64,000 nucleotides of DNA from assembly GCF_056712565.1 (NCBI RefSeq), contig NZ_CM160072.1. One strand, written 5' to 3'. The number at the start of each line of letters is the position of its first letter. Position 1 is the first letter of the stretch. A program made the translations under genes and the position numbers. Of the stretch, positions 39,274 through 40,035 are shown in pieces. Under the pieces are notes generated by a model. The model was not told the origin of the DNA. It worked only from the letters and a program-made list of their open reading frames with translations, and did no database searches.

Positions 39274-40035
39274 TTATCGGAGTAATTTATTGAGCTGATG
39301 CAGAATATCCTGTGTCTGGCTGTCCAGACGCAGCAGATAAAACAGATAAAATACGGTCAGCACAACAAGACCGCCGCACAGTACATGCTTGATGGTCAGT
39401 CGTCGGATTAACTGATAACGCCCACCCTGTATGTTGTTCTTCTGATGAAGTAGCGGAAATGGCGCGTCACCGCGCAGTTTGTGCAGGGCATGGTGCAGGC
39501 GCTGGTAGATCCGCTCAAATTCATCCTGTTGCTGAATGGCAACCTTGTAGCGCCCGCGAAAGCCGAGCGAAAAACAGAGGTATAAAAATTCCAGCAGATC
39601 CTGGTAACGTACCGGCTCCCGGATCAGGCGTTCGAGCAGGATAAACACTTTCTCGCCGCCCCAGGCTTCGTTATGAAAATGAACCAGCAGCGACTGTTTG
39701 ATCCATTCGTTTTTGTTGGACCAGCCGTTGCCCAGCGCCGCTTCATCAATAAACGTGCAGAGAATGTAACGGAACGAAACAATGACGCCCGGTTCGTATC
39801 CCTGTTCCTGGAGTAGTTGCTCTACGGCCTGGACATCGGTTACTACCTGGGTAAACAGATGTTCCGGCATGGCCTGACTGTTCATAGTGGACAGTCAGGC
39901 CATGCCGAGCAACGGCGTGGCGGCGTCAATCATTGGATTCAGGCTGTTGCCGCGAAGGGCGAGACGGTACTGGCGTCCTGGTGTTCCGCTCTCCGGCTCC
40001 ACGGGAAAAACCGACGCTTCACTCATATCGCTCAT
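39274..40035 (-). pseudogene. tssL: tssL (DotU family) interrupted by an in-frame TGA at codon 47
   Basis: ATG at 40035 with AAGGGGA RBS directly after the tssK stop encodes 46 aa with the DotU N-terminal motif (LRGNSLNPMIDAATPLLGMA), then TGA at 39897-39895. The same frame continues (LSTMNSQAMPEHLF...) as the 203-aa ORF 39274-39885 with the DotU core (RYILCTFIDEAALGNGW, LGFRGRY) and C-terminal TM. Confidence 0.8.
39867..39907. repeat. Perfect 16-bp inverted repeat with 9-nt loop inside tssL, containing the in-frame TGA
   Basis: Plus strand GGCATGGCCTGACTGT-TCATAGTGG-ACAGTCAGGCCATGCC; the arms are exact reverse complements. Confidence 0.85.

Follow-up and report, generated by a model that had tools for sequence, protein, structure and literature searches.

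The window analysed here, a 64,000-nt stretch of contig NZ_CM160072.1 (RefSeq assembly GCF_056712565.1), comes from a B2/ST95-like (sequence type 95) Escherichia coli and carries a Vibrio cholerae-like type VI secretion system (T6SS) island at 28905-51934. The island gene tssL, of the icmH/dotU family, lies on the minus strand at 39274-40035, in the gene order tssK-tssL-tssH-vasI-tssA-tssM, and is a pseudogene with an in-frame TGA at 39897-39895. Read from the ATG at 40035-40033 the frame runs for 46 codons, encoding MSDMSEASVFPVEPESGTPGRQYRLALRGNSLNPMIDAATPLLGMA, to the TGA; beyond it the tssL frame stays open, and the next ATG, at 39885, starts a 203-aa open reading frame (ORF) ending at 39274. 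The start at 40035, the 46 codons, the TGA and the 203-aa remainder agree with the initial annotation of the window. The N-terminal fragment (39895-40035, minus strand, 46 codons plus TGA) spans the disordered N-terminus and the first two-thirds of helix α1 and ends in ...PLLGMA followed by the stop. The downstream ORF (39274-39885, minus strand) represents TssL without residues 1-48, that is without all of helix α1, and its ATG follows 9 nt after the TGA. The stop itself (39895-39897, minus strand) has the context TGA-C.

The intact orthologue has 251 aa in the numbering of the Prokaryotic Genome Annotation Pipeline (PGAP), and in this numbering the stop falls at codon 44. Two in-frame start ATGs, 9 nt apart, are present in the window at 40026-40035; PGAP picks the second one (40026; 251 aa) and other gene callers the first (254 aa; e.g. 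protein P0009). In a divergent group of alleles, the 118UI type, a 9-nt duplication (ATGAGCGAT) is found at the tssL start.

The TGA is part of a perfect inverted repeat with 17-bp arms (39865-39881 and 39891-39907) and a 9-nt loop. On the minus strand, the inverted-repeat search gives as the mRNA-5′ arm CGGCATGGCCTGACTGT (39891-39907), which is the rewritten arm and holds the TGA; the mRNA-3′ arm ACAGTCAGGCCATGCCG (39865-39881; repeat search and allele alignment) is the same as in intact alleles. The loop CCACTATGA (39882-39890, from the sequence and the fold) contains the downstream in-frame ATG, 39885-39883. A perfect palindrome with the TGA in its mRNA-5′ arm had been noticed from the start; its arms had been given as 16 bp within 39867-39907, and these figures had to be changed to 17 bp, with coordinates shifted by 1-2 bases. 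The same repeat can also pair in an alternative way, with 20-nt arms that are 95% complementary (one G·T mismatch) and a 3-nt loop. It is the longest perfect inverted repeat of the 64-kb window, where the runner-up has 13 bp (49741-49772), and the chance expectation for 17-bp repeats with loops of 3-20 nt in 64 kb is ∼7e-5, by arithmetic that assumes uniform base composition. Folded as RNA, the hairpin reaches −37 kcal/mol; folded as DNA, it reaches −23 to −25 kcal/mol. In both cases the z-scores relative to dinucleotide shuffles are in the range −7 to −8. A search for an intrinsic terminator or a promoter at the tssL hairpin found neither.

As to the runner-up repeat, its 13-bp arms AACAACATCCTGC and GCAGGATGTTGTT enclose a 6-nt loop and begin 10 nt past the stop of hcp (49213-49731); it is probably the transcription terminator of that gene. 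A Dcm site (CCAGG) is located at 39846-39850, 15 nt from the tssL palindrome. One study (PMC6357072) reports that 5-azacytidine-trapped Dcm-DNA crosslinks raise quasipalindrome template switching in E. coli.

The nature of the lesion became apparent from comparison with other genomes. In a sample of 5,426 complete E. coli genomes, 548 have this tssL locus; the imperfect form of the palindrome, with no TGA, is present in 541 of them, and the remaining seven have an identical mutant allele. At the site, intact alleles read CGGCATGG TGATGCGT CTGT CCACTATGA ACAG TCAGG CCATGCCG, an imperfect palindrome that encodes ...G M V M R L S T M N S Q A M P..., and the window reads CGGCATGG CCTGA CTGT CCACTATGA ACAG TCAGG CCATGCCG. 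Thus, in the alignment with intact alleles, the 8 nt TGATGCGT are replaced by the 5 nt CCTGA (39895-39899, minus strand), which amounts to four substitutions and a 3-nt deletion; the same patch stands out in the per-column differences against sister haplotypes. The opposite arm holds TCAGG (donor segment 39873-39877, minus strand, within codons AGT CAG), whose reverse complement is exactly CCTGA, and every changed base matches this template. The ancestral quasipalindrome had an 8-bp outer stem, an asymmetric interior of 8 × 5 nt, a 4-bp inner stem (7 bp with one G·T) and a short loop; the lesion abolished the 8 × 5 asymmetry and left perfect 17-bp arms. At the codon level GTG ATG CGT (Val-Met-Arg) became GCC TGA (Ala-stop), with a net loss of 3 nt. 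The initial annotation had raised the possibility of an ancestral TGG codon, which the intact alleles contradict, and of an ancestral palindrome that was imperfect, which they confirm; its suggestion of a quasipalindrome template switch as the origin gains support from a one-step complex change wholly templated by the opposite arm.

A TGA was created only because the donor arm reads AGT CAG. The 118UI-type alleles (L003, strain 118UI, 540-600) have AGC CAG in the donor arm, at the equivalent of window 39873-39877. By this arithmetic of codons the same switch in a 118UI-type allele would yield TGG, an in-frame Trp in a protein one residue shorter, instead of TGA; no such TGG product is present among the 548 complete genomes.

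The lesion is not private to the window genome and recurs in several lineages. The seven complete genomes with the CCTGA allele are A13 (sheep, Mexico), MS20657 (blood, Finland), N17, N24, N39, N47 and N64; N17, whose record was the one read among the N strains, came from cerebrospinal fluid (CSF). The allele is fixed in a clade made of MS20657, N17, N24, N39, N47, N64 and KTE isolates; a literature search for a paper identifying the MS20657/N-strain lineage found none. In a larger protein collection, the window's 203-aa ORF (P0004) had exact matches on 31 contigs, and a Thr-to-Ala variant of it (P0003) occurred on 129 contigs. When 16 further contigs were fetched, all 16 had the identical 43-nt palindrome (CGGCATGGCCTGACTGTCCACTATGAACAGTCAGGCCATGCCG) after a 46-codon ORF. 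Each mutant background was found in at least two samples, and the seven complete genomes come from different laboratories, hosts and countries. Partial or intermediate corrections were not seen, there being no identity band between mutant-like and wild-type-like alleles among the 548 genomes. With respect to phase variation, recurrent switching-off is observed and there are no revertants among the 548 genomes; the perfect palindrome leaves no template from which TGATGCGT could be restored.

Taking these data together with those on haplotypes and on the protein described below, we think it highly probable that tssL was inactivated by a single quasipalindrome-associated template switch, that this switch recurs at a hotspot and that the T6SS is off as a result. 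In template switching (Ripley model; PMC7202029; PMC5941160) a nascent strand that has stalled is extended on a template provided by itself or by the sister strand before it goes back, and the repeat becomes more perfect. At the tssL site, the nascent 3′ end, having just copied the inner stem ACAG, would fold back onto the arm already made, pair with CTGT, copy TCAGG and CCATGCCG from that arm and then rejoin the normal template; on the nascent strand of plus polarity the order would be CGGCATGG CCTGA CTGT, loop, ACAG and then the fold-back. The outcome would be that ACGCATCA on the plus strand (TGATGCGT on the coding strand) is overwritten by the complement of the other arm.

In E. coli, every rrn operon is oriented co-directionally with replication. 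The tRNA genes of the rrn operon are on the plus strand of the window, the window maps to 0.21-0.28 Mb of the UTI89 genome in plus orientation, and its cumulative GC skew is positive and climbs along the window; replication forks would therefore move in the plus direction. The rewritten arm is the 3′ arm of the plus strand. With the plus strand as the leading strand and the altered arm as its 3′ arm, an intramolecular switch by the nascent leading strand is the simplest version of the event, and it is the one we infer. Transcription of tssL is head-on to replication. Strand bias and a leading-strand preference have been documented for E. coli quasipalindrome reporters (PMC7202029). The reciprocal product, in which the other arm would be rewritten to ACGCATCA, was searched for with a synthetic query and was present in 0 of the 548 genomes, against seven genomes with the forward product; this asymmetry of orientation could also come from an intermolecular switch.

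The question of how many times the lesion arose was addressed with an alignment of ∼20.4 kb of the island, covering the window, 19 other mutant loci and six intact loci. Since the island is mosaic, origins were counted from sister-pair distances and from the limits that flanking single-nucleotide polymorphisms (SNPs) set on conversion tracts, not from a tree. Mutant loci occur on about seven backgrounds, 27-180 sites apart per 20 kb. Four of these backgrounds have a near-identical intact sister, and the four are 46-177 sites apart. The window has one other difference from its intact sister Z0117EC0054 in ∼20.4 kb, A13 and L024 have two from MS 57-2, L012 has two from WP3-W18-CRE-03 and L022 has one from MS1657.

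Three local haplotypes bear the lesion, each in common with its own intact relatives. Class I (the window, L010-L019) has A at +57; class II, made up of the A13 type and the MS20657 clade, combines G at +57 with base differences that begin at −932 and continue outward; class III (L022, MS1657) has private bases at −436, −371, +836 and +866. The nearest distinguishing SNPs around the lesion are at −932/+57, −371/+57 and −371/+836 bp, and class-to-class transfer would need conversion tracts of <989, <428 or <1207 bp, respectively; for transfer between class I and class II or III, one tract end would be confined to the 42 bp between the lesion and the SNP at +57. Because three distinct local haplotypes bear it, the lesion would appear to have arisen independently at least three times, and five or more origins are likely from the haplotype comparison. 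Recurrence of an identical, complex 8-to-5-nt change is not credible for untemplated mutation and is what is expected of a templated hotspot.

The protein affected is an ordinary TssL. The intact orthologue, identical to the protein named from strain RS218, matches the Pfam family DotU (PF09850, E = 2.4e-58, residues 31-232) and TIGR03349 (217 bits with a cut-off of 90, residues 30-240); in the window copy the DotU match is split by the stop, and the uninterrupted frame of the TIGR03349/DotU family is lacking. An AlphaFold 2 model of the intact orthologue has a mean predicted local distance difference test (pLDDT) score of 86, with helices at 31-186 and 213-250 forming a helical bundle and a C-terminal membrane helix; helix α1 covers residues 31-48 (PGAP numbering) at pLDDT 90-96. 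Foldseek matches include the structures 4V3I, 7THW, 6Y4R (Acinetobacter baumannii TssL), 3U66 (enteroaggregative E. coli, EAEC) and 4ACK (Francisella DotU). The model superposes on V. cholerae TssL 4V3I with a template modelling (TM) score of 0.92 and on EAEC 3U66 with 0.69, and in the structure alignment the cytoplasmic domain is 45% identical to that of V. cholerae TssL (VCA0115, PDB 4V3I). The PGAP product name, ‘type IVB secretion system protein IcmH/DotU’, arises as TssL passes the low cut-off (50 bits) of the NF038228 IcmH_DotU_IVB equivalog; the name is misleading, the gene being in a T6SS cluster.

The lesion changes V43-M44-R45 into A43-stop inside helix α1. A consensus NPLxxAAxPLLxLxxRL, with a nearly invariant N30, is seen in an alignment of 47 sequences and lies upstream of or across the stop. 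Among the 150 best family representatives from a library of 1.8 billion proteins, 144 align from query residue 32 or earlier, and the six exceptions are mostly short fragments. Functional orthologues that start naturally at the downstream ATG, a pattern that had been named as speaking against a lesion, were looked for in this set, and instead the motif and α1 precede or span the stop position in the family. A product restarted at M49 would lack α1, N30 and the first 22 positions of the TIGR03349 profile.

Translation would thus end inside helix α1 of the DotU cytoplasmic domain. At best, traces could be made of an α1-less 203-aa protein, for which re-initiation by a ribosome terminating 9 nt upstream is possible, or of a product of low-level UGA-C readthrough, which is possible too. 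The TssJLM membrane complex could not be assembled normally, and this T6SS would be off. Polarity on the genes from tssH through tssM is another possible consequence. Judged from its genes, the T6SS island of the window is very probably non-functional although it looks complete.

Apart from tssL the island is intact. It comprises hcp ... vasL, tssM, tssA, vasI, tssH, tssL, tssK, tssJ, tagH, tssG/F/E/C/B, hcp and vgrG, and the 16 other T6SS coding sequences of the window have no internal stops. It adjoins a tRNA-Asp gene (27375-27451), downstream of dnaQ and of the plus-strand rrn operon, and corresponds to the cluster of RS218 (RDI-1) and of the enterohaemorrhagic E. coli (EHEC) Z0250-Z0264 type; we name it by its tRNA-Asp position, the published numbering of E. 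coli T6SS types being inconsistent between papers. The 24 kb around tssL are essentially identical to those of the ST95-complex strains Z0117EC0054, APEC E18055, UTI89, APEC O1, S88 and IHE3034. The only other difference between the window and Z0117EC0054 in ∼24 kb is at 34920 (tssA, minus strand), a missense change, TssA Thr281Pro. The lesion in the window is therefore likely to be very recent, as all other T6SS genes match the intact sister except for this change; a recent lesion in an otherwise intact cluster is what had been proposed at the outset.

In other carriers decay has gone further. A −1 frameshift in tagH is common to the whole MS20657/N-strain/KTE clade (six genomes: L005, L006, L020, L021, L023 and L025); in addition, MS20657 (L005) has a stop at codon 446 of tssA, L021 a further 1-nt deletion in tagH (−2 nt in total) and L025 an 8-nt deletion in tssF. 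A −1 frameshift in vasL (equivalent of window ∼30139) is common to L010, L013 and L018. L022 has a stop at codon 105 of tssJ (equivalent of window ∼41601); besides the tssL lesion, nothing else separates L022 from its intact sister over 20 kb. Secondary T6SS lesions occur only in loci with the tssL lesion and in 0 of the six loci with intact tssL. The pattern is suggestive, in a small sample, of stepwise decay of the T6SS after the hit in tssL, as would be expected if the lesion removes selection on the rest of the machine.

Other explanations of the allele were weighed against these observations. Hairpin-forming sequence is a known trouble spot, and an in vitro polymerase template switch or consensus polishing at the hairpin might mimic the lesion; still, a sequencing, library or assembly artefact is extremely improbable given the same allele in seven complete genomes and 16 contigs from unrelated projects and platforms, its fixation in a whole clade that also has a common tagH frameshift, and the imperfect form in the other 541 assemblies that have the locus. 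As a general explanation of the allele, an artefact is ruled out. Close to negligible, in our estimate, is the chance that the allele came about by gene conversion from a paralogous tssL or by several independent untemplated point mutations and a deletion. Many genomes do have a second T6SS-like match to parts of the 24-kb island query (median of two places per genome), and an ∼80%-identical tssL homologue, which other strains (O157, for example) have in a single place per genome, is a candidate donor; yet a change made up of four substitutions and 3 deleted nucleotides that follows the opposite arm throughout and is identical on several backgrounds is not credible as a set of independent events. 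The O157-type tssL (80% identical) was rejected as donor, for it reads GTAATGCGC at the site, with no CCTGA and no strong palindrome, and is itself intact; it encodes the same GMVMRLSTMNSQ peptide. It is also very unlikely that the gene still functions, through recoding or readthrough of UGA (as selenocysteine or Trp) or through a working short TssL re-initiated at ATG 39885. UGA followed by C, a context said, after Poole et al. in 1995, to terminate weakly, and the in-frame ATG 9 nt downstream would be in favour of this, as would the existence of a ‘TssL short form’ family in NCBIfam. Even the short-form profile begins at the equivalent of residue ∼31, though; ATG 39885 has no Shine-Dalgarno sequence before it and sits in the loop of the −37 kcal/mol hairpin in free mRNA, and lineages with the allele gather further T6SS knockouts. 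Selenocysteine recoding was rejected: a scan of 39600-40200 for a selenocysteine insertion sequence (SECIS) or other Rfam family gave only generic hairpin (miRNA family) matches of 19-22 bits against gathering scores of 49-53, and relatives have Val-Met-Arg, not Cys or selenocysteine, at the site.

A single origin by the same quasipalindrome switch, followed by spread of the null allele by homologous recombination and involving no hotspot, is the main alternative to recurrence, and the mechanism of origin is unaffected by it. We regard it as unlikely, although it has more to be said for it than the alternatives above. Within class I (ST95-like, STEC299-like and WP3-W18-like backgrounds and L014) and within class II (A13-like background and MS20657 clade) the flanks are identical over 3.7-5.8 kb, so that the lesion could have travelled on tracts of ordinary length and left no trace, and recombination and recurrence are inseparable there; some backgrounds look mosaic as well. 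Between classes, very short tracts would be needed, and four mutant haplotypes have an intact sister from which, the lesion aside, they differ at 1-2 sites per 20 kb; moreover, quasipalindrome sites are known as recurrent hotspots in E. coli, at thyA and rpsL (PMC7202029, PMC5941160). The long flanks within classes count against our interpretation of recurrent template switching with loss of secretion, and so do a few other points. Conversion tracts of <0.43-1 kb, with one end in the 42-bp interval, could in principle have moved an allele of single origin between classes. The missing reciprocal allele could reflect selection, the reciprocal product being in-frame, and not strand bias. The UGA-C context and the nearby ATG may allow some TssL-like product to be made, the loss of secretion having been deduced from the reading frame. 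An assembly error in the window itself is formally possible, the window being known from an assembly and not from reads. The secondary lesions in Logan contigs may include assembly errors; those in tagH and tssA, however, are in complete genomes.

Recurrent template switching in tssL has close parallels. As described in PMC7202029, the natural thyA hotspot and the lacZ reporters QP5/QP6 (Viswanathan et al. 2000; Dutra & Lovett 2006; Seier et al. 2011, as cited there) likewise involve an imperfect inverted repeat in coding sequence that is perfected in one step by a replication template switch, and share with tssL a complex, fully templated change, a hotspot, strand asymmetry and a null allele. 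According to the same account, those hotspots were seen under laboratory selection (trimethoprim resistance, Lac reversion), whereas the tssL allele occurs in wild isolates across lineages with no experimenter's selection. Mutations of the Ripley type are expected to depend on replication, to be suppressed by 3′ single-strand DNA exonucleases (ExoI/ExoVII) and to be stimulated by azidothymidine (AZT) or quinolones; in reporters, fluoroquinolones and AZT raise the number of events. The model of Ripley (1982), developed for T4 rIIB and yeast CYC1, is the mechanism proposed for tssL: the nascent 3′ end folds back within its own strand, the other arm is copied and synthesis goes back to the template, which accounts for substitutions and an indel arising together. 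There is no mechanistic difference, tssL being a bacterial chromosomal instance in a secretion-system gene.

Template-switch signatures in genome comparisons (Lavi et al. 2018, PMC5941160; Loytynoja & Goldman 2017, PMC5453318) are, like the tssL lesion, clusters of differences between close relatives copied from nearby inverted sequence, and among multinucleotide mutations of SARS-CoV-2 (PMC12619124) an identical change recurs many times, as it does here. These surveys are genome-wide, while tssL is one E. coli locus with a clear phenotypic target, a T6SS core gene, and with sister haplotypes that date the events as recent. Parallel T6SS loss in ST131 and ST410 (Cummins et al. 2023, PMC10711316) resembles the present case in that extraintestinal E. 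coli repeatedly inactivate a chromosomal T6SS and keep most of the locus. In that study the presence or absence of tss genes was scored by coverage; four ST410 genomes were without tssLM, an ancestral insertion event was described in ST131, and the tss region was ‘consistently present’ in ST95 and ST73. A coverage screen of this kind would miss the nonsense allele of tssL, which is only 3 nt shorter. As for protein structure, the intact orthologue has the same helical bundle and C-terminal membrane helix as the TssL/DotU structures 4V3I, 3U66, 6Y4R and 4ACK, and the window copy is broken inside α1.

Part of the picture is already on record. For the same allele PGAP makes an ‘internal stop’ pseudogene call in the records opened (three of the seven complete genomes); identical tssL alleles are thus already flagged as pseudogenes by RefSeq, the origin of the lesion is a textbook quasipalindrome mutation and the gene is an ordinary TssL/DotU gene. 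A literature search, itself incomplete, found neither this tssL allele nor natural quasipalindrome homoplasy in E. coli described before, which is weak evidence of novelty. What appears to be undescribed is a natural, recurrent and directional quasipalindrome hotspot that switches off the T6SS in several lineages of extraintestinal pathogenic E. coli (ExPEC), including a blood/CSF clade. Quasipalindrome switching is well characterised in laboratory reporters, but records of it as a repeated cause of gene loss in natural bacterial populations are rare; in tssL, a single 43-nt site yields one and the same complex null allele, affecting an essential T6SS component, on several ExPEC backgrounds. 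The case is mechanistically unsurprising, but it is an unusually clean natural example that makes the rate of template-switch mutations, their strand bias and the selection on them directly testable, and the locus offers a natural reporter, ready for use, of template-switch rates, of strand bias and of stimulation by drugs. It is also a concrete instance in which mutational bias sets the route by which a secretion system is lost. For comparative genomics it holds a warning: the lesion looks like four SNPs and an indel, is homoplasic and can mislead phylogeny and recombination calls, and presence/absence screens count carrier strains as T6SS-positive.

A broader proposal, speculative and in our view rather doubtful, is that the tssL quasipalindrome acts as a natural high-rate one-way off-switch of the tRNA-Asp-linked T6SS in phylogroup B2, which might fire in many lineages by leading-strand switching in a head-on gene and whose null allele might be tolerated, or even be at an advantage, in invasive clones. 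An example would be the blood and CSF clade, where the allele is fixed and further T6SS decay followed. If true, this would be the first population-scale readout of quasipalindrome mutagenesis in wild bacteria, with mutational bias shaping which virulence or competition genes get lost.

A further observation concerns the distal part of the island. In the region 48001-56000 of the window the G+C content is low (0.435) and the GC skew strongly positive (0.19). Mapped on UTI89, the region comprises the intergenic stretch between tssB and hcp, hcp itself, vgrG and two genes whose products are a DUF2169 protein and a PAAR-like protein; in UTI89 it also has degraded ISAs1 copies. It is likely to be a separately acquired effector module.

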